A stretch of 64,000 bases of DNA from Acidobacteriota bacterium (GTDB lineage: Bacteria > Acidobacteriota > Vicinamibacteria > Vicinamibacterales > UBA2999), in assembly GCA_020851565.1 (NCBI GenBank), contig JADZCN010000114.1, positions 30,361 to 94,360 of the forward strand, given 5' to 3'. Below, piece by piece: positions 4,378 to 62,784 of the stretch (position 1 is its first letter; each line of letters begins with the position of its first letter). Made by a program: the position numbers and the translations under genes. The notes under the pieces were generated by a model that did no database searches, had not been told where the DNA came from, and saw only the letters and a program-made list of their open reading frames with translations.

Positions 4378-4450
4378 GACGCAGATGAGGGCAGCGCAGG
4401 GACGCAGATGGCGCAGGGCCGCAGATGGCGCAGATGTACGCAGATATCAA
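4378..4450. repeat. Array of GCAGATG-type 8-10-nt units
   Basis: GACGCAGATGAGG..GACGCAGATGGCGCAGGGCCGCAGATGGCGCAGATGTACGCAGATATC. The same unit family (or its reverse complement CATCTGCG) recurs at 5254-5303, 14950-14985, 47540-47572, 49810-49924 and 61921-62008. Confidence 0.9.
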
Positions 4451-4462
4451 GGAGTGGCTGGG

Positions 4463-5044
4463 CTAGGGATGAGCCGGGAGACTCGTTGCCAGCAACTTGA
4501 CCGAAGCACAGGCTCGGGCGGACGAGGAGACGCCCTTTGCGCAAAGGCCCTTTGCCTCGTCTTCGACCGACGAGGGATCCCGCAGCCGGGCGATGCCGAC
4601 CAGCGAGTACCAGGCCGCCTCGGCGGCCACCTCGGGCGGGGTGCCGTATTCGAGCGGGCGCAGGATCTCGAGGGCGTTCTGCGGCTCGTCCATGAACAGC
4701 CGGGAAATGCCGAGGTAGAGCGCCGCTGTCGGATCGTCCGGATAGTCCATGCGCACGCCGTCGAGCGCGGTGGCGGCGGCCACGTAATCGCCCTTTCGAT
4801 ACGGCTCGAGCGCTGTGTTCAACGCCCGCGCGGCGGGGGAGGTGCCGGCGATGAGTGGGGCCTCGAGGGATGTCAGGGGAAACGCGGCCAGATACGGCGC
4901 GGGATCGACCGGCGGCGGCTCGGGCGCGTTGACGGCTTCCGTTGCCGGCGCTCGCGGGGGACCGGGTGCCGCACCACGCGTCAAGTAGATCGCGCCGGCT
5001 ACAAGCGCGACCACGACAGCCAGCGCCACTCCGACCTTCTTCAT
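4463..5044 (-). CDS. Membrane-anchored hypothetical protein with TPR-like C-terminal region
   Basis: This is the in-frame part of ORF 4463..5302, starting at the ATG at 5044 (MKKVGVALAVVVALVAGAIYL transmembrane anchor). The upstream part of the ORF only translates the 15-mer tandem array. No specific family recognised. Confidence 0.55.
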   Translation of the reverse strand: MKKVGVALAVVVALVAGAIYLTRGAAPGPPRAPATEAVNAPEPPPVDPAPYLAAFPLTSLEAPLIAGTSPAARALNTALEPYRKGDYVAAATALDGVRMDYPDDPTAALYLGISRLFMDEPQNALEILRPLEYGTPPEVAAEAAWYSLVGIARLRDPSSVEDEAKGLCAKGVSSSARACASVKLLATSLPAHP

Positions 5045-5047
5045 CCC

Positions 5048-5183
5048 GCTCCGAACCTCCGCGCTTTGAACACCCGTGCTTTGAACACCCGTGCTTTGAA
5101 CACTCGTGCTTTGAACACTCGTGCTTTGAACACTCGTGCTTTGAACGCCAGTGCCTTGAACGTTCGTGCTTCGAACCTCCGTG
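5048..5183. repeat. 15-bp tandem array, about 8.5 copies (GTGCTTTGAACACYC)
   Basis: Read directly: GCGCTTTGAACACCC, GTGCTTTGAACACCC, GTGCTTTGAACACTC x3, GTGCTTTGAACGCCA, GTGCCTTGAACGTTC, GTGCTTCGAACCTCC. It lies in the divergent gap between starts 5044 (-) and 5215 (+). It is the reverse-complement family of the array at 53282-53412. Confidence 0.95.
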
Positions 5184-5214
5184 TGCCGGCGCCCCGGCAG
5201 TATACTTCGCGCCA

Positions 5215-6498
5215 ATGAAGCGACTCCTCCTGGCCCCTGCGTTGGCTCTGTCTGTATCTGCGTCCATCTGCGTCCCATCTGCGGCCCAGGTATCTGCGCC
5301 ATCCACGGTTCTCATCCCCGACTCGGTGTTCGATGGAGAGCGCCTCCAGAAGGGATGGGTGGTCGTCATCCGCGGCGAGCGCATCGTCGCGGCGGGCCCC
5401 TCGGCGTCGGTGCCCACACCTGCGGGCGCGCAGACGCGGCGACTGTCCGGGTTGACGTTGATGCCGGGCATGATCGAGGGGCACTCGCACCTGCTGCTGC
5501 ACCCCTACAACGAGACGACGTGGAACGACCAGGTGCTGAAGGAGTCGGTGGCCTACCGAGTGGCTCGGGCCGTGACGCACGCGGAGCGGACGCTGATGGC
5601 CGGGGTCACCACGGTGCGCGACCTGGGCAGCGAAGGCGCGGGGTACGCGGACGTGGGGTTGAAACGCGCCATCGATGATGGCGTCGTGCCGGGACCGCGC
5701 ATGCTCGTCGCGGGGCCAGCGATGGTGGCCACGGGCAGTTACGGGCCGAAGGGCTTCGCCTCCGAGTGGCGGGTGCCGCAGGGGGCGGAAGAAGCGGACG
5801 GCCTCGAAGGCGTCGCGCGGGTGGCGCGCGACCAGATTGGGCACGGCGTGGACTTCATCAAGATCTACGCGGACTATCGCTGGGGCCCGAACGGTGAATC
5901 GCGGCCCACCTTCACGCTCGACGAGATCACCCGCATCGTCGAGGTGGCCAGGAGCAGCGGCCGGCCGGTCGTTGCCCACGCGGGGACGGTCGAGGGGATG
6001 CGCCGTGCCATCCTCGGCGGCGTCGAGACCGTCGACCACGGCGACGAGGGCACGCCGGAGATCTGGAAGCTGATGGTCGAGAAGGGCGTGGCCTATTGCC
6101 CGACGCTGGCCGCGCCGGACGCGACGGCGCAGTACGCCGGCTGGAAGAAGGGCGTGGAGCCCGAGCCGGAGCGCATTGCGAAGAAGCGCGAGACGTTCAA
6201 GGCGGCCCTGGCCGCGGGCGTGAAGATGTGTTTCGGCGGGGACGTCGGGGTCTACCCGCACGGCGACAACGTGCGCGAGCTGGAGATGATGGTGCAATGG
6301 GGCATGACGCCGCTGGCGGCCACGGTCGCGGCGACGTCAGGGAATGCGGCGCACTTCCACCTCGAGAACCGCGTCGGCCGCGTGCGCGAGGGATTGCTGG
6401 CGGACCTCATCGCCGTAGAGGGGGATCCGACGGCCGACATCGCCGCGCTCCGCCGTGTGAAGTTCGTGATGAAGAACGGCCGCGTCTACAAGCAGTGA
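5215..6498 (+). CDS. Amidohydrolase family protein (metal-dependent hydrolase), secreted
   Basis: In-frame part of ORF 4942..6498 from the ATG at 5215, with signal peptide MKRLLLAPALALSVSASICVPSAAQ. HxH metal motif (EGHSHLLLH); overall similarity to the second amidohydrolase at 13711..14943. TATACT lies 8 nt upstream of the ATG. Confidence 0.8.
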   Translation: MKRLLLAPALALSVSASICVPSAAQVSAPSTVLIPDSVFDGERLQKGWVVVIRGERIVAAGPSASVPTPAGAQTRRLSGLTLMPGMIEGHSHLLLHPYNETTWNDQVLKESVAYRVARAVTHAERTLMAGVTTVRDLGSEGAGYADVGLKRAIDDGVVPGPRMLVAGPAMVATGSYGPKGFASEWRVPQGAEEADGLEGVARVARDQIGHGVDFIKIYADYRWGPNGESRPTFTLDEITRIVEVARSSGRPVVAHAGTVEGMRRAILGGVETVDHGDEGTPEIWKLMVEKGVAYCPTLAAPDATAQYAGWKKGVEPEPERIAKKRETFKAALAAGVKMCFGGDVGVYPHGDNVRELEMMVQWGMTPLAATVAATSGNAAHFHLENRVGRVREGLLADLIAVEGDPTADIAALRRVKFVMKNGRVYKQ

Positions 6499-6580
6499 CA
6501 AAGAAACCACGAAGGCACGAAGAGAATCACGAAGGGCACGAAGTCAAGACCTCAAGCCCCAAGCCCCAAGCCCCAAGACC
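6499..6580. repeat. Composite array: AAAGAAACCACGAAG / CACGAAG units followed by GACCTCAAG / CCCCAAG units
   Basis: ACAAAGAAACCACGAAGGCACGAAGAGAATCACGAAGGGCACGAAGTCAAGACCTCAAGCCCCAAGCCCCAAGCCCCAAGACC. It is collinear with the element at 52327-52443 and sits between convergent gene ends (6498 and 6593). Confidence 0.9.
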
Positions 6581-6592
6581 TCATGGCCCCCT

Positions 6593-9362: not shown

Positions 9363-9644
9363 CGCGGTGGCGTTCGGCGGTGAGCGTGAAGCTCGCGACG
9401 GGTACCGATGCGACCTGCTGAGCCGATCGGGCGCGCGTTGCCGCCTATCCTGACGACTGCGGGCGTCTGGAGGCGGGCGACTTGCGCCGAATGTTCGCCT
9501 GGGACCGGCTTCTCAGGCCGGGCGTGGAAAAGATCGGATCGACGTGGCGGGATCGAGGGCGATCTGTCGTTCTCCACGGTGGATGCCGCTTTCGCCGCCA
9601 TGAGGTCGTCGCCTCGCTCGGCAGGGCTGACCGCAGGCCGTCCC

Positions 9645-17766: not shown

Positions 17767-17778
17767 GGGCAAGACTAC

Positions 17779-17915
17779 CATTGAGCGATTGCTGATTGGC
17801 GATTGGGCGATTCACTGAAGATCGAGCGATTGGGGCATTGGGCATTGAATCGGGCGATTGGGTGATTGCGGCATCGGGCGATTCGTTGCTGGCAGACGTC
17901 GGCCCGTCGTCGCCC
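17779..17915. repeat. GATTG/CAATC palindromic-element family, half copy (E1)
   Basis: CCATTGAGCGATTGCTGATTGGCGATTGGGCGATTC...GGGCATTGGGCATTGAATCGGGCGATTGGGTGATTGCGGCATCGGGCGATTCGTTGCTGGCAG. It is homologous to one arm plus the centre of the elements at 27847 and 31022. Confidence 0.85.
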
Positions 17916-26546: not shown

Positions 26547-26588
26547 GGACCCGCTGGTTGGACGCAGGGCCGACAGGCGTGGATCCGG

Positions 26589-26708
26589 GTGCGGGCGGGT
26601 GCGAACAGGTGCGAACAGGTGCGGGCGGGTGCGGGCGGGTGCGGGCGGGTGCGGGCGGGTGCGAACGGGTGCGGGCGGGTGCGAACAGGTGCGGGCGGGT
26701 GCGAACAG
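26589..26708. repeat. 12 x 10-bp tandem array with two unit states (GTGCGGGCGG / GTGCGAACAG)
   Basis: Read directly. Unit order is G A A G G G G A' G A G A. It lies in the divergent gap between starts 26546 (-) and 26728 (+). The same family occurs at 54643-54807 and, reverse-complemented, at 40505-40560. Confidence 0.95.
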
Positions 26709-26727
26709 GTGACGTGAGGGGAGGCAG

Positions 26728-27195: not shown

Positions 27196-27200
27196 GCGGG

Positions 27201-27243
27201 CGCAGGGTGCAAGGGTGCAAGGGTGCAGGGGTGCAAGGGTGCC
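27201..27243. repeat. About 5 x 8-bp array GGGTGCAA/GGGTGCAG
   Basis: CAGGGTGCAAGGGTGCAAGGGTGCAGGGGTGCAAGGGTGCC. Same unit family as 56576-56642. Confidence 0.9.
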
Positions 27244-27274: not shown

Positions 27275-27853
27275 ATGCTTCCCGCTGAACTGCAGGACTT
27301 GATCGACCAGGTCGACGCCGCCGAGGCCGACGCGCGGACGTTGGTCCGCGGGCTCGACGACCGCCAGGCGAACTGGCAGCCGGATGGTGGTCAAGCGTGG
27401 AGCATCGCGCAGTGCCTGGACCACCTCGCGCGCATGAACAGCTTCTACGTCGAGGCCGTCCTGCCGCGCGTGCGGCGGGCGGCCGAGGGCTCGGTGGCGC
27501 CCTTCGAGTCGCTGGCGCCGACGTGGCTCGGGCGCAAGTTCGTCGAGTCGATGGAGCCGCCCGTGACGCGCCGCTTCAAGGTCCCTGCCGCGCGCGTGGC
27601 GCCTGCCTCCGACATGCCGGTCGCCGACGCCCTGGCCGCCTTCGGCAACAGCCACACCCGCTACCGCGAGCTGGTGCGGCTGTGCGCGGGCCTCGATCCG
27701 AACCGCGTCCGCGTGCCCAACCCGTTCTTCAAATGGGTGTGGATGAGGGCCTCCACGGTGCTCCTCGTCATTCCCGCGCACGACCGTCGCCACCTCTGGC
27801 AGGCTCGCCGGGTTCTCGCGCGGCCCGACTTCCCGAGCACCGCTGTCCATTGA
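27275..27853 (+). CDS. DinB family protein
   Basis: 192 aa. WSIAQCLDHLARMNSFY and IPAHDRRHLWQARRVL His-containing helices are typical of the DinB/DinB_2 four-helix bundle. The stop TGA (27851-53) lies inside the CCATTGAGCG terminus of the repeat element. Confidence 0.75.
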   Translation: MLPAELQDLIDQVDAAEADARTLVRGLDDRQANWQPDGGQAWSIAQCLDHLARMNSFYVEAVLPRVRRAAEGSVAPFESLAPTWLGRKFVESMEPPVTRRFKVPAARVAPASDMPVADALAAFGNSHTRYRELVRLCAGLDPNRVRVPNPFFKWVWMRASTVLLVIPAHDRRHLWQARRVLARPDFPSTAVH

Positions 27854-28129
27854 GCGATTGCAGATTGGTGATTGAGTGATTCATTGGGTGATTGGCGATT
27901 GACGCATCGGGCATTCGGATTGAGTGATTCAGGGATTGAGCGATTGCCTCATTGGGGGCTGAGAGCCGACGGCCAGTGACAGCGTGGTCGCCGGGCGGCG
28001 ACGAATCGCCGGATGCCCCAATCACCCAGTCGCCCAATCCAATGCCCAATGCCCAATCGTCAATCACCCAAGGAATCGCTCAATCAGCAATCGGCAATCG
28101 CCAATGGACGCGCGACGGCTCACAGCACC
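27847..28129. repeat. GATTG/CAATC palindromic element, full copy (E2)
   Basis: Left arm CCATTGAGCGATTGCAGATTGGTGATTGAGTGATTCATTGGGTGATTGGCGATTG. Right arm CAATCGTCAATCACCCAAGGAATCGCTCAATCAGCAATCGGCAATCGCCAATGG (ends 28107). A conserved flank ACGCGCGACGGCTCACAGCACC follows. Confidence 0.9.
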
Positions 28130-28337: not shown

Positions 28338-31028
28338 ATGCGCGCCCCCTCGTTGTCATTCGTTCGTGCCGTCGTGGCTGTGTCTATCGCCGCGTTTGGA
28401 ATCGCCACGCCTGCACATGGCCAGCAGGGGTGGTCGAGCAGCGTGGTGACGCTGTCGGTGCCGCAGGTGGACCACGACGGGTTGCAGGTCTGGCTTCGAA
28501 AGCGGCCGGCGCTGGCGGCCGATCCGGCCGGCAATGTCGTCGCCGTCTGGGTCCAGCCGGTCTCCGCGTTCGCCGCCGTCGTCCAGGCCGCGCGGTATTC
28601 GGCGGCAGCCCGCGCATGGGGAGCGCCGGTCACGCTTTCGGGGGCAGGTATCCCCACCGAACCGCGGGTCGTGGTCGACAGCGGAGGAAACGCGCTCGCC
28701 GTGTGGGGGAGGTTCAATGGTCCGGTGCAGTCCGCGCGCTACCTGCGGGACTCCAATGCATGGACCGGCCCGATCGAGGTCGATTCAGGCATCTTGTTTG
28801 CGGACGAGCTGGATCTGGTCGCCGACGCCGCGGGCAATGCGTTCGCCGTCTGGGTGCAAAGAAACGCGTCGGCAGACGTCGTCCCAGGGGTCTATGCGGC
28901 ACGTTTCAGCGCCGGCAGCAACGCGTGGGCGACTGTCGTCCCGATGTCGGCCACGGACGCGTGGCAGCCACGGATTGCCGTGGATGCCTCCGGCAATGCC
29001 ACAGTGCTCTGGGTTGCCCGGGTGGGCACCAGCCTGGACTGGGTGGTTCACGCGCGCCGCTATGTGGCCGGCGCCGGAGCCTGGACCGAGGCGGTCGAGC
29101 TCTCGTCCGGTGGCAGCGCCGCGCCGTTTGGTATCAACCTTCGCATCGTCTCCGATGCGACGGGGCAGATGACCGCAGCGTGGTCGCTGTCTCAGTTCGA
29201 TGAAATGGAGGACGTGACCTACACGACGGTTCAGGCGCGTCGCTACACTCCGGCGACTGGGTCGTGGGGGCCGGTGGTCGACCTGTCGGCTGCCGGGGGA
29301 GATGCGCGCTGGCCGACGCTGGCGGCCGACGGGACTGGCGGTGCCTTTGCCGCCTGGCTCCAGTACTCACCGGACGGCGACGTCGCGCGGGTCCAGGCGA
29401 CTCGCTTCTCGGCTGATGCCGGAGGCTGGAGCGCACCGGTCGATCTCGGTCCGCCTTGTACGTGGGGACGACCCGGTACTTTCCCCGAAGTCGTCGCCGA
29501 CCACGAGGGCAATGCGTTTGTGATCTGGGTCCAGACCTTCGAGGAGCCGGTGCCCGGCAGCGCGCTCCAGGCGGCCCGATACGTGGCAGCTACTGCATCC
29601 TGGGGCGCCGCCGTCATCCTCGAGGTGGGCGCCCCCGAGCATCAGACCGCGGTCGATTCGTTGGGCAACGTCGTCGTCGTCTGGTCCTACGGTGCGCGTG
29701 CGGCCAGGTTCGTGGTGACGGCGGGCGCGTGGACGCCATCCGTCACCGTCGGGCCGGGACCGTCGGTGTTGGCCATTGCCCCGGGGATGGCCGTCGATCC
29801 GCTGGGCAACGTGACGCTGGCCTGGAACCGGTTCGACAGGTTCACCGAGGTATCGGACATCGCGAGCAACCGTTGGGTGGCCGCGCCATTGGCCCCCACC
29901 ATCGGCGTCGTCAGCCCGGGGGCCGGCTCGCTGAGCGTGGCGTTCTCGCCGCCGCCCACTTCGGAACCGTTGTTCGCTCCGACCAACTACGCGTACTCGG
30001 TCGATGACGGCGCGACGTGGCACCTGCGAGATCCGGCGTCCGCGGCGTCGCCGGTGTTGATCGCCGGGCTCACGGACTTCGTTCCCTGCAGGGTGCGGCT
30101 GGTCGCGATCAATCGCGCCGGCCCTGGACTGGCATCTTCGTCCGTTCTGGCGGTGCCACATCCGGTTCCGTTGGCGCCACGAGAGCTGACGGCCACATCG
30201 ATTGTCGGCAACACCGTCACGTTGTCATGGATCGCTCCGCAAGGCGGCATCCCGCCGACGGGGTACGTCCTCGAAGGCGGCGTTCACCCCGGCGAGGTCC
30301 TGGCCAGCATTCCCACGGGGAGCATCGCACCGCAATTCACGTTCGAGGCGCCGGCAGGCGCGTTCTACGTACGCGTCCATGCGGTTGCCGGCACGCTGCG
30401 CAGCGCACCCTCCAACGAGATTCAAATCGTCGTCCGCGTAGCAGCGCCACCATCGGCGCCGGTCAACCTCCGCGGCCTCGTCAACGGCTCCGACGTCGCG
30501 CTGTCGTGGACGAACACGTTCGACGGCGGTGCGCCCACGAGCCTGTGGCTGAGCGTCACTGGCGCGATCGAGACGGCGTTGCCGCTACCGATGGCAGAGA
30601 CCTTCACGTACGCGAACGTGCCGCCGGGCACTTACACCCTCCGCGTCGTCGCGGCAAATGCGGTGGGGACCAGCCCGTTCTCGAACGCGGTGACATTGAC
30701 TTTCCCTGGACCGTGTACGGGCGTGCCGGGCGTGCCGGTCAATCTCCAGACGTGGAAGGTCGGCAGCACGATCTTCGCGAGCTGGGACGCCCCGGTGAGT
30801 GGGCCGGCGGCGACGGGGTACGGCGTGTTCGTCTCCGGCGCGTATGTCGGTGGCTTCACGACGACCGCGCGCACGCTCTCGGGTGTGGCGGGGCCCGGTG
30901 AGTACGTCATCAGCGTGGCCGCGACCAACGCGTGCGGGACGGGGCCGGCGACGGCGTCGCAAACGGTTGTCCTTCCGTGGCTCGCGCCGTCACGAACAGG
31001 CGTCATGCGCGCTCGCGGCGTCCATTGA
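28338..31028 (+). CDS. Secreted protein: nine ~45-aa repeats (probable beta-propeller) followed by 3-4 fibronectin type III-like domains
   Basis: 896 aa; AGGAGGA SD; signal peptide ending ATPAHGQQ. Repeats have the form D..GN(A/V)xxVW..(15-25 aa)..ARY/ARF....AW..PV.L, nine times. The C-terminal half has FN3-like modules (LSVAFSPP.., VTLSWIAP.., VALSWTNT.., IFASWDAP..). Confidence 0.75.
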   Translation: MRAPSLSFVRAVVAVSIAAFGIATPAHGQQGWSSSVVTLSVPQVDHDGLQVWLRKRPALAADPAGNVVAVWVQPVSAFAAVVQAARYSAAARAWGAPVTLSGAGIPTEPRVVVDSGGNALAVWGRFNGPVQSARYLRDSNAWTGPIEVDSGILFADELDLVADAAGNAFAVWVQRNASADVVPGVYAARFSAGSNAWATVVPMSATDAWQPRIAVDASGNATVLWVARVGTSLDWVVHARRYVAGAGAWTEAVELSSGGSAAPFGINLRIVSDATGQMTAAWSLSQFDEMEDVTYTTVQARRYTPATGSWGPVVDLSAAGGDARWPTLAADGTGGAFAAWLQYSPDGDVARVQATRFSADAGGWSAPVDLGPPCTWGRPGTFPEVVADHEGNAFVIWVQTFEEPVPGSALQAARYVAATASWGAAVILEVGAPEHQTAVDSLGNVVVVWSYGARAARFVVTAGAWTPSVTVGPGPSVLAIAPGMAVDPLGNVTLAWNRFDRFTEVSDIASNRWVAAPLAPTIGVVSPGAGSLSVAFSPPPTSEPLFAPTNYAYSVDDGATWHLRDPASAASPVLIAGLTDFVPCRVRLVAINRAGPGLASSSVLAVPHPVPLAPRELTATSIVGNTVTLSWIAPQGGIPPTGYVLEGGVHPGEVLASIPTGSIAPQFTFEAPAGAFYVRVHAVAGTLRSAPSNEIQIVVRVAAPPSAPVNLRGLVNGSDVALSWTNTFDGGAPTSLWLSVTGAIETALPLPMAETFTYANVPPGTYTLRVVAANAVGTSPFSNAVTLTFPGPCTGVPGVPVNLQTWKVGSTIFASWDAPVSGPAATGYGVFVSGAYVGGFTTTARTLSGVAGPGEYVISVAATNACGTGPATASQTVVLPWLAPSRTGVMRARGVH

Positions 31029-31297
31029 GCGATTGCCGATTGGTGATTGAGCGATTCATTGGGTGAGTGGTGATTGAAGCATCGACGCATTCGGATTGAA
31101 GATTGACCGATTCCGCGATTGCGGCATTCGCGGCCGGCGGCCACGGACAGCGCGGTCGCCTGGCAGCGACGAATCGCCCGATGCCCCAATCACCCGATCG
31201 CTCAATCCAATGCCCAATGCCCAATCGCCAATCACCCAATGAATCGCTCAATCCGCAATCGGCAATCGCCAATGGACGCGCGAGGGCTCACAGCACC
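31022..31297. repeat. GATTG/CAATC palindromic element, full copy (E3)
   Basis: Collinear with E2 over its whole length at roughly 85% identity by eye, including the centre ..GACAGCGCGGTCGCCTGGCAGCGACGAATCGCCCGATGCCCCAATCACCC and the flank ACGCGCGAGGGCTCACAGCACC. It contains the stop of 28338..31028 (TGA 31026-28) and the stop of 31288..32550 (TCA 31288-90). Confidence 0.9.
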
Positions 31298-32610: not shown

Positions 32611-32701
32611 CTGCCTCCTGCTCCCTGACCCCTGCTCCCTGCTCCCTGCTCCCTGATCCCTGCTCCCTTATGGCTGATCCCTGATCCCTGATCCCTGATC
32701 C
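32611..32701. repeat. 8-bp unit array CTGCTCCC / CTGATCCC (about 10 units)
   Basis: CTGCCTCCTGCTCCCTGACCCCTGCTCCCTGCTCCCTGCTCCCTGATCCCTGCTCCC..GATCCCTGATCCCTGATCCCTGATCC. It is the reverse complement of the GGGATCAG array at 62385-62420. Confidence 0.95.
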
Positions 32702-38872: not shown

Positions 38873-38967
38873 TCATTGATGATTGGTGATTGGGGGATTG
38901 AGCGATTCGGCTGTCGCGCCGAGGAATCGTCCGATGCGGCAATCACCAATCTACAATCGCTCAATGG
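38873..38967. repeat. GATTG/CAATC palindromic element, short copy (E4)
   Basis: TCATTGATGATTGGTGATTGGGGGATTGAGCGATTCGG..CCGATGCGGCAATCACCAATCTACAATCGCTCAATGG. The right arm contains TACAAT (38952-57) and the ATG (38964) of the next gene. Confidence 0.85.
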
Positions 38968-40503: not shown

Positions 40504-41381
40504 GCGACGATCCGCGCCCGCCCGCACCTGACGGCACCCGCCCGCACCCGCCCGCACCTGTCCGATACGTCTGCGGCCATGGGCCGCGGGAGATCGAGCG
40601 GCTCGCCCTGCAGGCCCGCATCTACGAGGCGGTGACCAGGCGCCTTCTCTCACGTGCCGGCATCGGCGCCGGGTTCCACGTCGTGGACCTGGGATGCGGC
40701 GGCGGCGACGTGAGCCTGCTCGCCGCCGAAGCCGTGGGTCCGACAGGCTCGGTGCTGGGCGTGGATCGCTCGGCAGACGCCGTCGCGGCGGCCACGGCCC
40801 GCGCCCGCGAGGCCGGGCACGCCCACGCCCGCTTCATCGTCGCCGAGCTCGACGCCTGGGCCCCGGCCACGCCCGTGGACGCCGTCGTCGGCCGGTTCGT
40901 CCTGATGCACCAGCGCGATCCGGTGGCGCTCGTGGCGCGCGCACGCCGCTGGGTCCGGCCCGGCGGCGTCGTCGCCTTCGTCGAGTCCGACAACGCCTGG
41001 TGCCAGCCCGGCCGACACTCGCGCCCGCATTCGCCCACCTATCACCGCATCGTCCGGTCGTGGCAGGGCATCCTCGGCGCGGCGGGAGCGCATCTCGATA
41101 TGGGCTCCCGCCTCGGAGAGGGCTTCGTTGCCGCGGGACTGCCGGACCCGTCCGAGGAGGTGGACGTGCCCACGACGGGCGATCCGGCGTCACCCATCTT
41201 CCGGTTCGCGGTGGAGAGCCTGCGCAGCATGCTGCCGCTGGCGGCCGCCTCCGGCGTGCCCGTGCCGGCGGCGGCCGAGGCCGACAGCCTCGAAGCCGCA
41301 CTTCGGGCCGAGGTGGCCGCGCTCGACGGCACCCTGAGCGCGCCACCCGCCCATGCGGTGTGGGCCCGCGTGCGCGGCTAG
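40500..41381 (+). CDS. Class I SAM-dependent methyltransferase
   Basis: In-frame part of ORF 40185..41381. Motif I is VVDLGCGGGDVS. The start is proposed at GTG 40500, overlapping the upstream stop (GTGA). The first ~20 codons are encoded by GCACCCGCCCGCAC repeat units, so the start is uncertain. Confidence 0.7.
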   Translation: MSDDPRPPAPDGTRPHPPAPVRYVCGHGPREIERLALQARIYEAVTRRLLSRAGIGAGFHVVDLGCGGGDVSLLAAEAVGPTGSVLGVDRSADAVAAATARAREAGHAHARFIVAELDAWAPATPVDAVVGRFVLMHQRDPVALVARARRWVRPGGVVAFVESDNAWCQPGRHSRPHSPTYHRIVRSWQGILGAAGAHLDMGSRLGEGFVAAGLPDPSEEVDVPTTGDPASPIFRFAVESLRSMLPLAAASGVPVPAAAEADSLEAALRAEVAALDGTLSAPPAHAVWARVRG

Positions 41382-43106: not shown

Positions 43107-43172
43107 CCCCTCGGCGCCCCACGCCCCACGACTCAAGCCCCAGGGCCCAAGACCCAGGGCCCAAGACCCTAA
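43107..43172. repeat. C-rich degenerate array (CCCCACG / CCCAAGACC / CCCAGGG units)
   Basis: CCCCTCGGCGCCCCACGCCCCACGACTCAAGCCCCAGGGCCCAAGACCCAGGGCCCAAGACCC. It lies in the divergent gap between starts 42953 (-) and 43288 (+). Confidence 0.8.
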
Positions 43173-47539: not shown

Positions 47540-47662
47540 GACGCAGATGACGCAGATAGCGCAGATAACGCAGAACCCAGAACCCCAGAACCCCAGAACC
47601 CCAGAACCCCAGAACCCCAGAACCCCAGAACCCCAAACCCCAAGCCCCAAGACCTCAAGACC
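47540..47662. repeat. Composite array: CGCAGAT units, then 7 x CCCCAGAA, then CCCCAAG / GACCTCAAGACC
   Basis: GACGCAGATGACGCAGATAGCGCAGATAACGCAGAACCCAGAACCCCAGAACCCCAGAA...CCCCAAACCCCAAGCCCCAAGACCTCAAGACC. The stop of the APC permease (TCA 47655-57) lies in the last unit. Confidence 0.95.
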
Positions 47663-49794: not shown

Positions 49795-49809
49795 CGGACG
49801 CGGAGGGGC

Positions 49810-49924
49810 CACAGATGGCGCAGATGCGCGGATGCCAGGATTCCGCCACCCCACTGGTCCGGCCGCTCCGCGGCCGACCGCCGGGCCTGCGTCGGCGCAA
49901 CCTGAGTAATCTGCGCCATCTGTG
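49810..49924. terminator. 16-bp perfect inverted repeat with 83-nt spacer between convergent genes (putative bidirectional terminator/hairpin)
   Basis: CACAGATGGCGCAGAT (49810-25) and ATCTGCGCCATCTGTG (49909-24). The spacer contains the GC-rich sub-hairpin CGGCCG-CTCCG-CGGCCG. The arms belong to the GCAGATG unit family. Confidence 0.5.
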
Positions 49925-49927
49925 TTC

Positions 49928-52326: not shown

Positions 52327-52443
52327 AAAGAAACCACGAAGACACGAAGGACCATGAGGCCTCGAGGTCAGGAAGACCTCAAGACCTCAAGACCTCAAGC
52401 CTCAAGCCCCAAGCCCCAAGCCCCAAGCCCCAAGCCCCAAGAC
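52327..52443. repeat. Composite array collinear with 6499-6580 (AAAGAAACCACGAAG..CACGAAG.. then GACCTCAAG x3, then CCCCAAG x5)
   Basis: AAAGAAACCACGAAGACACGAAGGACC...GACCTCAAGACCTCAAGACCTCAAGCCTCAAGCCCCAAGCCCCAAGCCCCAAGCCCCAAGCCCCAAGACC. It lies between the glnS start (52311) and the upstream gene end (52466). Confidence 0.95.
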
Positions 52444-52465
52444 CCCGGTGCCTCGCTTCCTCCCC

Positions 52466-53266: not shown

Positions 53267-53281
53267 GGGGGATGGTACTAC

Positions 53282-53412
53282 GGAGGTTCACAGCACGGGA
53301 GGTTCAAAGCACGGGAGGTTCAAAGCACGGAGGTTCGAAGCACGGAGGTTCGAAGCACGGAGGTTCGAAGCACGGAGGTTCGAAGCACGGGGGTTCGAAG
53401 CACGGGGGTTCA
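53282..53412. repeat. 15/16-bp tandem array, about 8.7 copies (GGAGGTTCGAAGCAC / GGGAGGTTCAAAGCAC)
   Basis: Read directly. It is the reverse-complement family of 5048-5183. The last unit (GGGGGTTCAGGGCG) contains the stop TCA 53410-12 of the downstream permease gene. Confidence 0.95.
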
Positions 53413-54624: not shown

Positions 54625-54642
54625 TCAGGCGGAACTCTTCTC

Positions 54643-54807
54643 GTGCGGGCAGGTGCGAACAGGTGCGGGCAGGTGCGGCAGGTGCGGGCAGGTTCGGACG
54701 GGCGCCGGCAACTGCGGGCCGTGGAGTCCTGCCTGTTCGCACCTGCCGGCACCCGCCCGCACCCGATCGCACCCGTCAGCACCCGTTCGCACCCGCTCGC
54801 ACCCGTC
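54643..54807. repeat. Inverted arrays of the GTGCGGGCRG 10-mer family (long imperfect hairpin)
   Basis: Left arm GTGCGGGCAGGTGCGAACAGGTGCGGGCAGGTGCGGCAGGTGCGGGCAGG (54643-54700). Right arm CCTGCCTGTTCGCACCTGCCGGCACCCGCCCGCACCCGATCGCACCCGTCAGCACCCGTTCGCACCCGCTCGCACCCGTC (54728-54807). It sits between a gene end (54806) and the next gene start (54624) on the minus strand. Confidence 0.85.
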
Positions 54808-56545: not shown

Positions 56546-56575
56546 GCGGCGGAGTGTAGCATTCAGTGGCGAACA

Positions 56576-56642
56576 GGGGTGCAGGGTGCAGGGGTGCAGG
56601 TGCAGGGGGCAAGGGTGCGGAGGGTGCAAGGGTGCGGAGGGA
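56576..56642. repeat. 8-bp unit array GGGTGCAG/GGGTGCAA/GGGTGCGGA
   Basis: GGGGTGCAGGGTGCAGGGGTGCAGGTGCAGGGGGCAAGGGTGCGGAGGGTGCAAGGGTGCGGAGGG. It lies in the divergent gap between 56545 (-) and 56655 (+). Confidence 0.9.
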
Positions 56643-57593: not shown

Positions 57594-57625
57594 CCGCGTC
57601 GGGAGTCGGGCGTCGAGCCTCCGGG

Positions 57626-58591: not shown

Positions 58592-58625
58592 GTCGACGTG
58601 GGCCGGAGGTCGGGAGTCGGGACGC

Positions 58626-58688
58626 GGAACCCCAGAACCCCAGAACCCCAGAACCCGAGAACCCGAGAACCCCAGAACCCGAGAACCT
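58626..58688. repeat. 8-bp unit array CCCCAGAA / CCCGAGAA
   Basis: GGAACCCCAGAACCCCAGAACCCCAGAACCCGAGAACCCGAGAACCCCAGAACCCGAGAACC. It lies between convergent ends. The stop (CTA 58687-89) of the minus-strand gene abuts the last unit. Same unit as 47573-47640. Confidence 0.95.
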
Positions 58689-59285: not shown

Positions 59286-60908
59286 TCAGGCCCTGATCCT
59301 GAAATTCCTCATCATCCCCATGTCCTCGTGCTCGAGGATGTGGCAGTGATAGAGGTACAGCCCCGGGTGCGTCGAGAAGGTCACCTGCACACGGACGGTC
59401 TCGCCGGGCAGGACCAGCACCGTGTCGGTGGCCGACGAGTCAGAGATGCCGTCGCGGAGGGCGTTGGCGTCGGCGCCGGTCCGTGACAGGACGCGGAACT
59501 GCGGCCCGTGCAGGTGGAGGGGATGCGCCATGGCCATCCCCATCGGGTTCGGCTCGTTGCGGAACTCCCAGACGTGCGTGGACCCGGGCGCGACCGTCTC
59601 CTCCGGCGCGACGCCCTCCATCTCGAACGTACGGCCGCCCAGCAGCCAGTTCATCTGCATGAAGGTGAGCGACACGCGGCGCACCGGCGCCTCCGGCTGG
59701 ACACGCCATTCCGCCGGGGGCGTGGCGAGCCGCTCGGGCAGGCGCACGCGCGGGCCCGAGGTGTTCGACACCTTCAATGTCATCAGCGTGAGCGGTGCCC
59801 CCTGCGGGAGCGGCCCGGTTTCGCCCATCATCCCCACGTGTCCGACCGCGGCCTCGGGGTACGCGACGCTCCGCAGCTGCAGCTCCGATCCGGCCGCGCG
59901 TTCCGAGAGATCCAGCACGACGTCCGCCCGCTGCCCGGGCGCCAGCGTGAGCGCCTTCATCTCGCGGGCGCGCTCGAGCAGGCCCCCGTCGCTGCCGATG
60001 ACGGTGACGGGCGTGTCGTCGCTCCACGCCAGCTTGTAGATGCGCGCGTTGGATCCGTTCAGCAGCCGCACCCGGTAGGTGCGGCGATCCACGTTGACGG
60101 TGGGCTGCGGCTGGCCGTTCACGAGCACGCGATCCCCGAGCCAGCCGTTCATGGTCTGCATCATCTCGGCCATGCCGCCGCCCATCCCCATGCCCATGCC
60201 GCGGCCGCCCTGGCCCCGGCCCATGCCGCCGCCCATCCCGCGCCCGCGGCCGCCGCCCATACCCATGCCGCCGCCGACGCTGCTCGCGTATACCAGCTGA
60301 TTGTTCGCATCGAAGCGCCGGTCCTGGAGCACGCACACCAGCTCGCCCGGGCCGGAGGGGAGGCCGAGTGCCTTCTCCTCGGGGTCGGAGACGATCAACA
60401 TGCCCGCGAGGCCCTGGTACACCTGCGCGCCGGTGCGCTGGTGAGGGTGCGGGTGATACCAGTAAGTGCCGGCGCGGTTGGTCACCTCGAAGTCGTAGAC
60501 GTACTCGCGCCCGCCGTTCACGGCGAGGCGCGGGTGCCCGTCGGCAAGCTCGGGCACATCCAGGCCGTGCCAGTGGACGATGGAAGGCTCGTCCAGCTGG
60601 TTGCGGAAGCGAATGCGCACGCGCTGGCCGCGCTCGAGCCGGATGATCGGGCCCAGCCACGACTCCGGAATGGCCTGCAGTGTCTCGGGCGCTCCCTTGA
60701 TCACGCGGCCCGTGAAGCGCCAGACCCGCGTGGGCGCGCCCTTCAGCACGCTCAGCTCGGCTGGTGAGGCGGTGAGCGCCAGCTCCACGTCCGGCGCGGG
60801 GCGAGCCTGGGCGGCGTCCAGGAGCGGCCGCGCATCCAGGCCGAGCGCCCCGAACGCGGACGCGAGTGGCGAAAGTCCCAGCAGCTTCAGTGCATCTCGG
60901 CGGTCCAT
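59286..60908 (-). CDS. Multicopper oxidase with Tat signal and Met/Gly-rich insert (CopA/CueO-like)
   Basis: 540 aa. Tat-like MDRRDALKLLGLSPLASAFG. Copper-ligand motifs are HWHGL, WYHPHPH, HPLHLHG and HCHILEHEDMGMM. The insert is GGGMGMGGGRGRGMGGGMGRGQGGRGMGMGMGGGMAEMM. Confidence 0.9.
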   Translation of the reverse strand: MDRRDALKLLGLSPLASAFGALGLDARPLLDAAQARPAPDVELALTASPAELSVLKGAPTRVWRFTGRVIKGAPETLQAIPESWLGPIIRLERGQRVRIRFRNQLDEPSIVHWHGLDVPELADGHPRLAVNGGREYVYDFEVTNRAGTYWYHPHPHQRTGAQVYQGLAGMLIVSDPEEKALGLPSGPGELVCVLQDRRFDANNQLVYASSVGGGMGMGGGRGRGMGGGMGRGQGGRGMGMGMGGGMAEMMQTMNGWLGDRVLVNGQPQPTVNVDRRTYRVRLLNGSNARIYKLAWSDDTPVTVIGSDGGLLERAREMKALTLAPGQRADVVLDLSERAAGSELQLRSVAYPEAAVGHVGMMGETGPLPQGAPLTLMTLKVSNTSGPRVRLPERLATPPAEWRVQPEAPVRRVSLTFMQMNWLLGGRTFEMEGVAPEETVAPGSTHVWEFRNEPNPMGMAMAHPLHLHGPQFRVLSRTGADANALRDGISDSSATDTVLVLPGETVRVQVTFSTHPGLYLYHCHILEHEDMGMMRNFRIRA

Positions 60909-61886
60909 CTACTTCGAGCCTCCCAGCAAAGCCATCAGCGCCCACGCGGTCGTGGACAACCGCTGTGTCGCGCTCTCCGCGGCGCCCCCACGCATGGTCG
61001 CGGGCCAGCTGCCATCGGCGCGCTGCTGCGCCGCCAGATACGCGCGCCCCTTCGCGATGGCGTCGCGGAGCTCCTCGGCGCGGTACGTGGAGCGGGCCAG
61101 CCGTGGATCGGTCTCCAGTTCCTGCAGCGCGATGAGCACGAGCGCGGTGTCGAAGACCGTGGCTGACTCCGCGCCAGGTTCGGCGCCCCATCCGCCGCTC
61201 TCGCGCTGCGCGAAGCGCAGCATGTTCAGCAGCTTCGCCCGCTGCTTGTCGGCCATCACGTCCGACGTGACGCCGAGGCCGAGGACGATGCCGGCGGCGT
61301 CGGAGACGGTGGAGGCCTCTGCCGTGCGAGTCCAGCGGTCCGTCTGTGCCACGGCGAAGTCGTCGGGCTCGCGCCCGGACGCGATGAGCGCCGTGCGGGC
61401 CATCCAGGTGGCGACGGCCGTGCCCCAGGTGAGTGGCGTGTGCGGCGGGTCGGACGCGTCGGGTACCCAGGACCCGTCCGGCATCTGGTCGGCCAGGATG
61501 ATCTTCGCCGCCTCGACGAGCGCCGGCGACGGGTTCAGGTCCTTTTCCGCGGCCGCGGCCAGCGCCGACACGAACTGCAGCCGCATCAGCACCTCATCGT
61601 CGCCGTGCCCCTTGTTGGTGTTCCAATCTGCCGGGGCCTCGAGGAAGGCGCGTGCGTCCTTCAGCGCGTCGCCGACGTCGTGGCCGCGATGTGCGGCCAT
61701 GAACAGCGCCCGTGTGGCGTCGCCGGTGTGGTGGCAGGAGGCGCAGCCGTTCCCGGCGCGCCACGCCGGGACCTGCTTCAGGAGGTACGCGACGGCTTTC
61801 GCCTCGGGTGTCGCGGGTGCCTGGGCCTGGGGGAGGGCCAGAGCCGCCACCCAGAGCGCGGCGGCGGCGGCGAAGAAGGACCTCAT
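60909..61886 (-). CDS. Secreted prenyltransferase/squalene-cyclase-repeat-like protein with a CxxCH haem-c-type motif
   Basis: 325 aa with signal peptide MRSFFAAAAALWVAALALPQAQA. NGCASCHH (CxxCH) lies near the N-terminus. Repeated DGSW/GGWG elements (QMPDGSWVPD, RESGGWGAEPG, QRADGSWPAT) are typical of alpha/alpha-toroid terpenoid-cyclase-like repeats. The stop TAG abuts the MCO ATG with 0-nt spacing. Confidence 0.65.
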   Translation of the reverse strand: MRSFFAAAAALWVAALALPQAQAPATPEAKAVAYLLKQVPAWRAGNGCASCHHTGDATRALFMAAHRGHDVGDALKDARAFLEAPADWNTNKGHGDDEVLMRLQFVSALAAAAEKDLNPSPALVEAAKIILADQMPDGSWVPDASDPPHTPLTWGTAVATWMARTALIASGREPDDFAVAQTDRWTRTAEASTVSDAAGIVLGLGVTSDVMADKQRAKLLNMLRFAQRESGGWGAEPGAESATVFDTALVLIALQELETDPRLARSTYRAEELRDAIAKGRAYLAAQQRADGSWPATMRGGAAESATQRLSTTAWALMALLGGSK

Positions 61887-61920
61887 GGAGAGATGGTACG
61901 CGAATCCGATGCCCTGTGAT

Positions 61921-62008
61921 TATCTGCGTCCATCTGCGTCCATCTGCGGCTTCTGCGTCGATCTGCGGCCATCTGCGTCCCTCTGCGGCTTCCGCGTCCC
62001 TCTGCGGC
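61921..62008. repeat. About 9 x 9/10-bp array CATCTGCGTC / CATCTGCGGC / CCTCTGCGGC
   Basis: TATCTGCGTCCATCTGCGTCCATCTGCGGCTTCTGCGTCGATCTGCGGCCATCTGCGTCCCTCTGCGGCTTCCGCGTCCCTCTGCGGCCC. It lies in the divergent gap between 61886 (-) and 62032 (+). Confidence 0.95.
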
Positions 62009-62031
62009 CCCGGCGTTACAATCAGCGTCGC

Positions 62032-62784
62032 ATGTCCCGCCCCTTTCGCGCCGGCCAGTCCGTTGAAGATCACTGCCGGCAGTGCCACGAAGACCGCATG
62101 CACACCGTCATCGTCGTGGACGCTGCATCGCAACCTCTGCGTGTGCGATGCGACTACTGCGGGAGCGAGCACAACTATCGTGGAGGGCCGAGGACGGCGA
62201 TTCCGGGTCGGGAGTCGGGAGTCGGCAGTCGGGAGTCGGGTGGTGGGAGTAGTCGGGAGTCGGACGTCGGGGGGCGGGAGTCTGGCAGTTGGCTCTCACC
62301 CACGGCGACCGGGGCGACGGCAGGGTACTCGCGGCCGGCGCCACTCGAGCCCCTCGTCAGCGAGCGTGAGCGGTATTACCAGGAACCAGGGATCAGGGAT
62401 CAGGGATCAGGGGGCGGGGATCAGGAGGCAGGTGCAGACATGTCAGCCGTTGATTTCGAGACCCTGCTGCGCCGGGTGATCCGGGAGGAGACCGGGCTCA
62501 CGCCGGTGGCGCCCGCCGAGAAGTGGCGTGGCGGCGACCTCGTTCTTCGTCCGGGCAAGCCCGGCGTGCAGGAGAAGAGCTGGCCCATCGAGACGTTCTT
62601 CCACAAGGTCGTCATGCTGCGGAACCGGCTGCGCACGCTGGAGCAGCAGGTGAACGCGTCGGATCTGCCGGACGACCAGAAGGTGAAGATCCAGAGCTAC
62701 ATCACGGGGTGTTATGGGTCGCTGACCAGCTTCAACGTGCTGTTCGCGGACGAGGAGGACAAGTTCGTGGGCTCCGGGGAATAG
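62032..62784 (+). CDS. Hypothetical protein: N-terminal CxxC..CxxC zinc-ribbon, repeat-encoded low-complexity linker, conserved-looking C-terminal domain
   Basis: In-frame C-terminal part of ORF 60580..62784 from the ATG at 62032; TACAAT lies 9 nt upstream. CRQCHEDRMHTVIVV..VRCDYCGSEH forms the zinc ribbon. The linker (GRESGVGSRESGGGSSRESDVGGRESGS..PGIRDQGSGGGDQE) is encoded by the arrays. An alternative independent start is ATG 62440 (AGGAGG 11 nt upstream) for the C-terminal 114 aa. Confidence 0.55.
   Translation: MSRPFRAGQSVEDHCRQCHEDRMHTVIVVDAASQPLRVRCDYCGSEHNYRGGPRTAIPGRESGVGSRESGGGSSRESDVGGRESGSWLSPTATGATAGYSRPAPLEPLVSERERYYQEPGIRDQGSGGGDQEAGADMSAVDFETLLRRVIREETGLTPVAPAEKWRGGDLVLRPGKPGVQEKSWPIETFFHKVVMLRNRLRTLEQQVNASDLPDDQKVKIQSYITGCYGSLTSFNVLFADEEDKFVGSGE
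62205..62420. repeat. GGGAGTCG 8-mer array (62205-62292) and GGGATCAG 8-mer array (62385-62420) inside an ORF
   Basis: CGGGTCGGGAGTCGGGAGTCGGCAGTCGGGAGTCGGGTGGTGGGAGTAGTCGGGAGTCGGACGTCGG..GGGAGTC, and CAGGGATCAGGGATCAGGGATCAGGGGGCGGGGATCAGG. GTCGGGAGTCGGG also follows both TPM gene stops (57596-57610 and 58608-58621). Confidence 0.9.

Follow-up and report, generated by a model that had tools for sequence, protein, structure and literature searches.

Tandem arrays of several short-unit families at the gene boundaries of a Vicinamibacterales genome and its relatives

Introduction

Why should the boundaries between ordinary bacterial genes be occupied, one after the other, by arrays of units only 7-15 nt long? 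The question is raised by a 64-kb stretch of the 132,060-bp contig JADZCN010000114.1 (hereafter the window), which belongs to a metagenome-assembled genome (MAG) deposited as 'Acidobacteria bacterium'. The original prediction, made from this stretch, held that most of its intergenic gaps are filled with tandem arrays drawn from a small set of unit families, and that such a density is unusual for a bacterial chromosome; its author knew of no described mechanism or function for it. We find that the arrays are real and clade-wide, that they gain and lose whole units, that unit families persist while the loci carrying them turn over, and that the arrays are placed in spacers and protein linkers where they are tolerated. 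They are an extreme, multi-family case of a kind of abundant intergenic short-unit tandem repeat that has already been described. As to their nature, we propose with moderate confidence that they are minisatellite-type variable-number tandem repeats, a trait of a Vicinamibacterales clade, which would arise by slippage of units and by copying between arrays, be tolerated in spacers and have a structural effect of a generic sort.

Only a few bacterial lineages are known to have dense intergenic repeats of short units, and in about 35 years neither the origin nor the function of these has found an explanation. The clade considered here, a group of abundant uncultured soil Acidobacteria, offers an extreme case, in which close to half of the non-coding bases are built of repeats belonging to at least eight families. 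Its graded relatives from metagenomes, at 99, 90 and 80% identity, can be read as a natural time series in which repeats are born, expand, give way to another family and are lost. There are practical consequences as well: the arrays are usable as strain-typing markers, they generate in-frame disordered protein linkers, and they break short-read assemblies at almost every gene boundary, which biases the recovery of MAGs for the group.

Tandem arrays in the window

The window has a GC content of 70%. Its proteins match the entries MCC7180293 to MCC7180333 (locus tags IT177_) of the source MAG, and their nearest named relatives are Vicinamibacterales. Genes were called with a codon-usage model trained on the window, and all six calls that were checked are exact NCBI proteins of that MAG. 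Using Tandem Repeats Finder (TRF) with a strict filter (score of at least 50, period of 5-50 nt, at least three copies), 20 arrays with a total length of 1,522 nt were counted. This is far above random expectation: when the window was shuffled with its dinucleotides preserved (n = 100), the mean was 0.04 arrays and the maximum 1, and the pooled intergenic DNA gave none in 200 shuffles. The resulting density, 3.1 arrays per 10 kb, compares with a median of 0 at 80 GlnRS loci of diverse bacteria.

The enrichment between genes is pronounced. Non-coding DNA makes up 9.1% of the window and holds 14 of the 20 arrays (binomial P = 6e-11, after two start-codon corrections), and the cores of the units are 2.4- to about 300-fold denser there than in coding DNA. 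TRF reported arrays wherever the original prediction had placed them. The manual count given there was about 20 among some 30 gaps longer than 40 bp; with the stricter TRF setting an array is present in 18 of the 34 gaps of at least 40 bp and missing from the other 16, and about 23 have one if weak or inverted arrays seen by eye (14944, 17767, 38845, 49795 and 57594) are included. The original prediction needs amending here, as 'filled' overstates a coverage of about 43% (2,508 of 5,793 non-coding bases consist of arrays and array-built palindromes) and four arrays taken for intergenic, at 5256, 40512, 62207 and 62387, are coding.

Most arrays lie downstream of stop codons, starting 0-20 nt past them; some are found upstream of genes and some inside coding linkers, and five of the eight divergent gaps hold arrays. 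Several stop codons had been said to form part of the last unit, and we see this at 47655, 53410, 58687 and 1089, where the stop sits within a terminal degenerate unit, in the last case a degenerate copy of a 47/51-nt unit. CRISPR arrays can be ruled out: the units are contiguous, without spacers, and have periods of 7-15 nt, whereas CRISPR repeats measure 24-48 nt and are separated by unique spacers of similar length. A scan of the window against Rfam 15 gave 0 matches at the gathering threshold, and a tRNA/tmRNA scan of the window found no genes.

Independent assemblies

Seven independent short-read contigs from different samples, one NCBI metagenome contig and six Logan assemblies, encode an identical CitMHS or cupin protein, and the neighbouring arrays, those at 52377, 53280 and 54643/54738, are recovered in them. 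More precisely, contigs L081-L083 reproduce 53363-53411 and 54625-54828, and contigs L172-L175 both flanks of the cupin gene. With seven assemblies in agreement, the arrays are not artefacts of assembly. All seven contigs are only 0.9-1.5 kb long and each ends inside an array, which implies that array k-mers recur elsewhere in the genome and that assembly graphs branch there.

Turnover of arrays among relatives

Relatives were taken from the GlnRS-locus matches among those listed in genome and metagenome scans, few of which are close. They allow three levels of divergence to be compared: 99% (L086 with L091, and L084 with L085), about 90% (L084-L086 with the window) and about 80% (L087 and L090 with the window). 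Among the matches listed, L084-L094 (79-100% GlnRS identity) carry 2.3-8.4 arrays per 10 kb, except for two short loci, which means that the phenomenon is not confined to the window; the remaining metagenome loci among these matches, L095-L171, have a mean of 0.45 arrays per 10 kb, several of them with unit sets of their own.

At 99% identity a comparison of copy number between strains reveals length polymorphism in whole units. L086 and L091 (99.1% identical over 16.6 kb) differ by seven indels, six of which are in arrays, the large ones of 40, 10 and 7 nt corresponding to whole 10- or 7-nt units. L084 and L085 (99.2%) differ by three, all in a single 10-mer array (20 nt, and 1+9 nt), so that nine of the 10 indels of both pairs fall inside arrays. 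Substitutions at this level are 4-fold denser in non-coding DNA, where 16 of 26 mismatches lie in three arrays and the other 10 form one contiguous 10-nt block (8174-8183). Even between strains whose cupin protein is 100% identical, the unit composition differs in both flanking arrays.

In the 90% relatives arrays occupy the same gaps with changed content. The CATCTGCG-family array at 4378..4445 (minus strand, period 8-9), followed on that strand by TATACT, some 65 nt and the ATG of the BNR-repeat gene 1089-4313, has about six units in the window vs about 11 in L086 (17049-17150). At 5053..5183, upstream of another TATACT and of the ATG 5215 of an amidohydrolase gene, the window has 8.7 copies of the 15-mer GTGCTTTGAACACYC, bordered on both sides by single copies of the same unit, vs a single copy of GAACCTCCGTGC in L086 and L091. 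The 10-mer array at 26586..26711 has 12 units in L086 and seven in L091; the CTTGGGG stretch of 6508-6585 has three units in L086 and two in L091; and the gap at 52327-52445 is without CTTGGGG units in L085. Between the CitMHS and cupin genes the family itself differs. The window array at 53280..53411, consisting of 8.7 copies of a 15-mer (GTGCTTCGAACCTCC on the minus strand), begins at the CitMHS stop and extends as far as GTAGTACC, ahead of the cupin ATG; L084 and L085 have the 10-mer family in this place. Both versions join a conserved CCGTAGTACCATC in front of the cupin ATG, and the swap is clean, at a shared CCGT junction. In the 80% relatives the same gaps are short (33-98 nt) and array-free, and arrays are found in other gaps; these belong partly to the CTTGGGG, CATCTGCG and GATTG families, which are thus common to the window clade and to L087 and L090.

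Long heptamer arrays of other sequence occur farther away. More distant relatives (70-74% GlnRS identity) have their own, in L112 (JACXTT010003161.1) at 2955-5970, in L106 at 2784 and in L100 at 8791-10120, with units such as AGCAGGC (12 copies), TCTGCTG (10), TAGGACA (16) and TTGGTCG (5). A locus of Mangrovibacterium marinum DSM 28823 (L075, NZ_QAAD01000019.1; Bacteroidota, 48% GC) contains 24 heptamer arrays in 21.6 kb and is therefore denser than the window; its unit families include ACTCACG/ACTCAAG, TTTGGAA, AACCAGT, GTTGCTG, GTTACTG and TTCAATCC, and the heptamers build up higher-order repeats of 191 and 292 nt.

Unit families and their order

The main sample comprises the window and about 100 kb of related contigs, and the 72 arrays of these roughly 160 kb of clade sequence cluster into about eight main families. 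That a limited set of units recurs at many loci, as had been claimed, is seen within the window and in the related contigs. All-against-all BLAST of the window gaps recovers every family pairing of the original prediction, namely the pairs 5053~53280, 26636~54732, 47576~58631, 32645~62380, 4398~61932 and 27212~56604 and the triplet 6544~52379~47630; the first of these is an inverted match of 5053..5183 with 53280-53411, 79% identical over 132 nt. In all families except GATTG the similarity between loci ends at the edge of the array, with no shared flanks.

The 10-mer family is represented in the window by, among others, the array at 26586..26711 (plus strand), which lies in a divergent gap and consists of 12 copies of GGTGCG-R-R-C-R, with a G-quadruplex motif on the plus strand. 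Across 61 units from the window and four related contigs, position 9 is C without exception, 181 of the 183 bases at positions 7, 8 and 10 are purines (A or G), and the tails are GGCG, AACA or mixtures of both. Such a pattern would be expected if two founder units were being reshuffled by frequent unequal exchange, with point mutation far slower than the turnover. A derivation of the 15-mer unit from the 10-mer by simple insertion was considered, but the comparison, made by eye, is unconvincing.

Some arrays are composites in which several families follow each other in a fixed order. On the minus strand, the array at 6508..6585 reads, after the stop at 6593, three CTTGGGG, CTTGAGGT, four CTTCGTG and GTTTCTTT; that at 52327..52445, also on the minus strand and lying between the cupin stop and the GlnRS promoter region, reads five CTTGGGG, three CTTGAGGT, two CTTCGTG and GTTTCTTT, so that the order is identical and the ends are alike. 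A third composite (47541..47657, minus strand) consists, after the stop at 47655, of three CTTGGGG, eight TTCTGGGG and three CATCTGCG units; its orthologue in L084 keeps the order, with TTCTCGGG/TTCTCAGG units. Variants of this TTCT family, which occupy two non-orthologous loci, are specific to genomes: TTCTGGGG is exclusive to the window and TTCTCAGG to L084 and L085. The second window locus with a similar unit is the array at 58608..58687 (minus strand), where two GGGAGTC units are followed by 7.6 of TTCTSGGG and which adjoins and includes the stop at 58687. Likewise, the window carries the 15-mer family at two loci, and the 90% relatives lack it at both of the orthologous ones. Copying from array to array is suggested by these cases, of which there are only two.

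Outside the clade, five predicted viral contigs of IMG/VR (L176-L180, 38-53% GC) bear CTTGGGG arrays, 4-14 units in length and accompanied by the sister heptamers GCTTGAA, CGCTTGG and CAAGCCA, which indicates that the CTTGGGG unit is not restricted to this clade or to high-GC Acidobacteria; the pattern of the 10-mer family had no match among the viral contigs. A 5-mer core shared across phyla (GATTG or GCTTG) was also considered and discarded, GATTG being present in four of about 28 array-bearing lineages, which is within chance for the maximum over 512 5-mers.

Arrays inside coding sequence

The frame starting at ATG 62032 reads through two plus-strand arrays, 10 GGGAGTC units at 62207..62282 and 5.6 copies of GGGATCAG at 62387..62425, into a gene first called at 62440, giving a single protein of 250 amino acids (62032-62784) with the arrays in its linker. 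It has a CxxC...CxxC N-terminus, a zinc-ribbon-like motif, and a highly conserved C-terminal domain without Pfam match, and it aligns end to end with a 233-amino-acid orthologue in L087 (E = 2e-117), the linker of which is a different repeat-encoded low-complexity segment. In the amidohydrolase gene 5215-6498, which has a Pfam match, CATCTGCG units at 5256..5300 (plus strand) fall in the signal-peptide region and are translated as MKRLLLAPALALSVSASICVPSAAQVSAPS; the start was set at 5215 because the orthologues are 427 amino acids long. A fourth coding array, 4.7 copies of the 10-mer-family unit CCGCACCCGC at 40512..40558, is situated in the sole in-frame N-terminal extension of the methyltransferase gene 40500-41381. 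The process that makes arrays is thus not confined to intergenic DNA, and arrays persist where extra sequence is tolerated.

A further coding repeat was noted at 60170-60280, in the multicopper oxidase gene 59286-60908, where a 24-nt unit occurs in about four copies; it has no relation to the intergenic families and may code for an insert rich in Met, His and Gly.

Structure and strand orientation

Motifs for G-quadruplexes (at least four runs of at least three G) number 13 in 6.3 kb of non-coding DNA vs eight in 57.7 kb of coding DNA, and all 13 non-coding ones are in arrays; judged by the motif alone, about half of the arrays have one. Repeats of GGGGTTCT, CTTGGGG, GGGTGCAA and GGTGCGGGCG could be quadruplex formers, while the CATCTGCG, CACGAAG and 15-mer families and the direct GATTG runs, about half of the families, are without G-tracts. 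Of nine G-run arrays next to stop codons, eight have the G-rich strand as sense strand (P = 0.02, a small sample), a tendency that the relatives share with exceptions. Two examples are the array of five GGGTGCAR at 27198..27242 (plus strand), which begins 2 nt past a stop codon, and that of 12 GGGAKCAG (period 7) at 32617..32701 (minus strand), which reaches from 1 nt past the stop to the ribosome-binding site of the next gene. Given this orientation, a role as Rho-utilisation (rut) sites for the upstream gene was rejected: the arrays are unstructured, but their sense strand is G-rich and not C-rich in eight of nine, and RNA of the C-rich strand would arise solely from antisense or convergent read-through.

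In terms of Watson-Crick structure, direct arrays do not exceed their shuffles, and some fall below them. Inverted arrays and palindromes, by comparison, fold with z-scores of -3 to -18 and sit in convergent gaps or behind stops. One of the inverted arrays, at 54643..54805, is a pair of 10-mer arrays predicted to form a long hairpin (-125.6 kcal/mol, z -8.5), with an orthologue in L085 (2963-3112); GCAGATG units at 49806..49925 form an inverted pair, again a hairpin, in a convergent gap (z -3.5 and -2.8). A search of 44-64 kb for intrinsic terminators (hairpin plus U-tract) gave three weak matches where 5.3 were expected, none of them at an array, and canonical sigma-70 promoters were not found above the shuffle level in the same 20 kb.

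Palindromic elements with GATTG units

The GATTGNN items of the original prediction are not simple arrays. They turned out to belong to a palindromic element, about 190-300 bp long, dispersed and bounded by the conserved termini GTCCATTG...CAATGGAC, of which the window has three full copies and two remnants, with more in L086 and L090. Six copies were aligned; their ends are conserved, and the whole is a stable imperfect palindrome whose arms are built from 7-8-nt GATTGNN units (NNCAATC on the opposite arm). The copy at 27845..28115 has a predicted fold of -164 kcal/mol (z -12.2) and is 86% identical to 31020-31297; its terminus contains the stop of gene 27275-27853 (GTCCATTGA). The second copy (31020..31285), in a convergent gap, supplies a GTCCATTGA stop too, so that two genes owe their last codons and stop to the element. 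The third full copy, at 62795..62995, again lies in a convergent gap (z -18 and -16), and full elements as a group fold with z-scores of -12 to -18. A short GATTG palindrome is found behind a stop codon at 38875..38965 (z -3.0 and -3.6), and 17767..17811 is the leftover of an arm. The window contains no gene for a transposase, a reverse transcriptase or a transposase of the type associated with repetitive extragenic palindromes (RAYT). No target-site duplication was identified for the GATTG elements, nor was there a clean empty site to judge by.

The element to which this leftover belongs is intact in L086 (9693-10000). In the window a 4.6-kb segment (17767-22482) with three genes for CHB_HEX_C_1/Fn3_assoc/RCC1-repeat proteins lies within it, with arm remnants at 17767-17900 and around 22450-22482; the palindrome may be a hotspot for insertion. 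Within this segment a tandem duplication of 439 nt (18354-19234, 2.0 copies, 93% matches) spans the boundary of genes 17812-18648 and 18656-21022 and doubles CHB_HEX_C_1/Fn3_assoc domains.

How the arrays may arise and what they may do

We favour the following scenario. Whole units are gained and lost very fast, as the comparisons show and as fits slipped-strand mispairing or unequal exchange, and this turnover would outrun point mutation, so that an array would become a mosaic of a few founder units, for instance recombinants of GGTGCG with GGCG or AACA. Some eight families recur at many loci of the window and the related contigs and persist down to relatives of about 80% identity, although the loci carrying them are no longer the same; they may spread by ectopic conversion or template switching between arrays and not arise de novo each time. 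Arrays survive only where extra DNA is tolerated, that is, between a stop and the next promoter-proximal sequence or in in-frame disordered segments. Any effect would probably be structural and generic, not sequence-specific: families with G-tracts could form quadruplexes or R-loops, with the G-rich strand being the sense strand, and inverted arrays and GATTG palindromes could provide long hairpins at gene ends in a region without canonical hairpin-plus-U terminators.

Several points weigh against this scenario. The putative structural role is deduced from the sequence, and the sense-strand bias comes from nine arrays, with exceptions at 53280 and 40512 in the window and at 16962 in L090. Slippage alone leaves the recurrence of families at unrelated loci and their persistence across genera unaccounted for, and for copying between arrays we can point to two anecdotes, the TTCT variants and the distribution of the 15-mer. 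The strict conservation of cores could reflect selection on the sequence, for example as a binding site. Finally, the survey covers 64 kb and about 100 kb of related contigs, and the exact copy numbers in short-read MAG contigs may be misreported.

Could the arrays be elements selected in cis for making or insulating the 3' ends of transcripts? Sense-strand quadruplexes or R-loops and long hairpins would then stop or stabilise transcripts in a genome of 70% GC. The start of arrays 0-20 nt after stops, the G-rich sense strand in eight of nine G-run arrays, the roughly 15-fold enrichment of quadruplex motifs in non-coding DNA, the folding of inverted arrays in convergent gaps or after stops (z -3 to -18), the lack of canonical terminators in 20 kb and the conservation of array positions at 90% identity all speak for this, and Xanthomonas repeats are placed likewise, close to stops and on the sense strand (Rehm 2015, PMC4692102). 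Yet we consider it rather unlikely, because about half of the families (CATCTGCG, CACGAAG, the 15-mer and direct GATTG runs) have neither G-tracts nor Watson-Crick structure, 16 of 34 gaps do without an array, the same gaps are array-free and 33-45 nt long in the 80% relatives, one gap has changed family with no visible consequence, and further arrays precede genes or lie within coding linkers. Multivalent binding, in which each family would offer sites to its own sequence-specific DNA- or RNA-binding protein, as proposed for the TAACTGA repeats of Beggiatoaceae, would account for invariant cores with two to four variable positions (GGTGCG-RRCR, GATTG-NN), for families kept across about 20% divergence while loci turn over, and for the position of CATCTGCG arrays, which lie immediately upstream of a -10-like box at 4378 and at 61922 and precede a promoter region at 47541; the two families with a period of 10 nt would moreover have their cores on one face of the helix. 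It appears improbable nonetheless: the flanking genes have no common functional theme, copy number and even family differ freely at the same gene between strains or species, some eight factors would be needed for the eight families and no candidate protein has been identified, and a few founder units shuffled by recombination explain the pattern of cores and variable positions equally well. A bolder idea, which we regard as a long shot, is that the unit families are more than products of slippage: as lineages they would be carried actively from locus to locus by some sequence-specific process, or else they would be binding arrays for conserved host factors. Propagation would operate by templated copying or homing between arrays, or through a trans-acting enzyme that adds or homogenises repeats. 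If true, this would explain at once why families outlive loci across about 20% divergence, why genome-specific variants occupy non-orthologous loci and why the family swap at the CCGT junction is so clean.

Another explanation makes all arrays parts of transposing non-autonomous mobile elements, similar to MITEs (miniature transposable elements with inverted repeats) or repetitive extragenic palindromes (REPs), with the tandem structure being internal. It suits the GATTG palindromes, a genuine dispersed family with conserved termini, three full window copies and others in L086 and L090, and the stop codons that elements supply to two genes, and also the CTTGGGG-CTTGAGGT-CTTCGTG-GTTTCTTT module, present twice in the window with the same order and end. 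For the other families we doubt it strongly, since their similarity stops at the array edge with flanks not shared, direct arrays showed neither terminal inverted repeats nor target-site duplications, the window holds no transposase or RAYT-type gene, and the 15-mer array at 5053, lying between single copies of its own unit, resembles an amplification in situ. Phase variation, in which the arrays would be contingency loci switching neighbouring genes, would be in keeping with whole-unit copy-number differences between strains and with arrays that lie between a -10-like box and the upstream DNA or in 5' coding regions. However, most arrays are downstream of stops, arrays are present in roughly half of the gaps, a number much too high for contingency loci, and the neighbours are housekeeping or metabolic genes (GlnRS, transporters, peptidases, oxidoreductases), not surface or virulence genes; the explanation is therefore very improbable. 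The flanking genes are indeed ordinary throughout, with MacB-type permeases, an ECF sigma factor and kinase and TPM-domain proteins besides those just named, and no mobile enzyme among them, which argues against contingency loci and also leaves no local candidate for an enzyme that makes arrays. That the arrays are errors of assembly, or a chance product of 70% GC, has next to no probability: the source is a short-read MAG contig and assemblers do err at repeats, but shuffles gave 0.04 arrays on average where 20 are seen, three arrays are matched base for base by seven independent assemblies of different samples, and orthologous arrays occur in four other MAGs or metagenomes.

Relation to known repeats

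The density was rightly judged unusual. Across prokaryotic groups the median is 0-3 satellites per Mb (Subirana & Messeguer 2019, PMC6749651) and the window corresponds to about 300 arrays per Mb, a comparison good to an order of magnitude only as detection criteria differ. The remark that no described mechanism or function was known to its author holds in part: the kind of repeat is already on record from Xanthomonas, Nostoc, Calothrix, Beggiatoaceae, Burkholderia and Chloroflexus, and its function is unknown in all of them. We found no report in the literature of such repeats in Acidobacteria or Vicinamibacterales.

The closest parallels are GGGAATC in Xanthomonas and GGGGA(C/T)T in Nostoc, which are over-represented in non-coding DNA, lie on the coding strand at most 50 bp from stop codons or overlapping them, and form direct arrays plus 70-75 convergent inverted pairs per genome; between two Xanthomonas species their positions are mostly conserved and their length is variable, and they flank all functional classes of genes and form quadruplexes in vitro, with no known function (PMC4692102). 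The window arrays share with them units of about 7 nt, the bias to non-coding DNA, ordinary neighbouring genes, a place near stops with a G-rich coding strand, direct and inverted arrangements, quadruplex motifs (in about half of the arrays), and conservation of position with variable length and sequence between relatives; furthermore, the unit of the (GATTGGG)n runs found in L086 is GGGGATT of Nostoc in rotated form. They differ in a density about 8-fold above that of Xanthomonas (3 per 10 kb vs about 186 repeats in a 5-Mb genome), in having at least eight families with units of 7, 8, 9-10 and 15 nt instead of one dominant heptamer, about half of them without G-tracts, in the ordered composites and the family replacement at an orthologous gap, in divergent gaps that are not depleted (five of eight hold arrays), and in arrays upstream of genes whose G-rich strand is the coding and not the non-coding one. 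The units are not GGGNATC, the nearest being GGGATCAG and GATTGGG, so that the resemblance is one of kind and not of sequence family.

Calothrix has three tandem heptanucleotides of the short tandemly repeated repetitive (STRR) class, as cited in PMC4692102, and cyanobacterial STRR heptanucleotides are hypervariable enough for strain fingerprinting (PMC5088731). As far as that citation goes, Calothrix PCC 7601 resembles the window in having several heptamer families per genome, in tandem and dispersed in intergenic DNA, and differs in phylum and GC content, the window units also being 8-15 nt long. Burkholderia mallei and B. pseudomallei have several families of GC-rich microsatellites of 6-8 nt, and Chloroflexus has 22 arrays of a single heptamer, (GATAGRA)n (PMC6749651). 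Likened by description, Burkholderia matches the window in its high GC and its many short-unit arrays of several families dispersed over the chromosome, but these are discussed mainly as drivers of rearrangement and coding variation, a bias towards stop codons being undescribed there (PMC6749651). TAACTGA units, known from Beggiatoaceae, cyanobacteria and Bacteroidetes (MacGregor 2015, PMC4679880), are likewise abundant intergenic direct repeats of a heptamer with neighbours of no functional theme, and contigs of relatives end in repeats; they comprise two to six copies a few nt upstream of starts, whereas the window arrays are mostly after stops, longer and of many families. Borg elements (PMC9879509) have pervasive, fast-evolving tandem repeats between genes and in frame, encoding disordered protein segments to which the 62032-62784 linker may be compared, but they are archaeal and extrachromosomal, and their repeats are reported to arise independently at each site and are not shared families. 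For the GATTG elements alone, REPs, bacterial interspersed mosaic elements (BIMEs) and MITEs are the better comparison: these too are dispersed, about 190-300 bp with conserved ends in the present case, located at gene 3' ends, strongly though imperfectly palindromic and overlapping stops. The differences are arms made of 7-8-nt units and the lack of a RAYT or transposase gene in the window and of an Rfam match.

Other arrays and minor observations

The remaining arrays can be described briefly. A cluster at 781..1043, in a convergent gap, consists of 47/51-nt units of short GC-rich stem-loops (TRF reports a 47-mer with 2.3 copies and 92% matches) and folds with z-scores of -2.3 and -3.5; an orthologous copy is found at the end of L091. 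Divergent gaps contain an array of CCCMRRG type at 43115..43169 and eight GGGTGCR at 56574..56641 (plus strand). Two units of GGGAGTC type follow a stop codon at 57596..57615 (plus strand), and 8.7 copies of CATCTGCGKC at 61922..62009 (plus strand) precede a TACAAT and the ATG 62032. Next to the array of 27198..27242, an exact-match look-up returned no record for the protein 26728-27195.

The hexamers TATACT, TAGTAC and TACAAT, which are -10-like, stop 8-9 nt short of the ATG in three genes (5193-5217, 53267-53285 and 62012-62034), and the interval lacks a Shine-Dalgarno sequence, which suggests leaderless mRNAs; ahead of the cupin gene, L084, L085, L087 and L090 all keep GTAGTACCATC. Just upstream of the PadR-family regulator gene 47165-47476, at 47495-47535, lies an AT-rich near-palindrome, TCTATATAGAACATCTATAC, which is probably the PadR operator and is conserved in L084 as TTTATATAGATGTTCTATATAGA.

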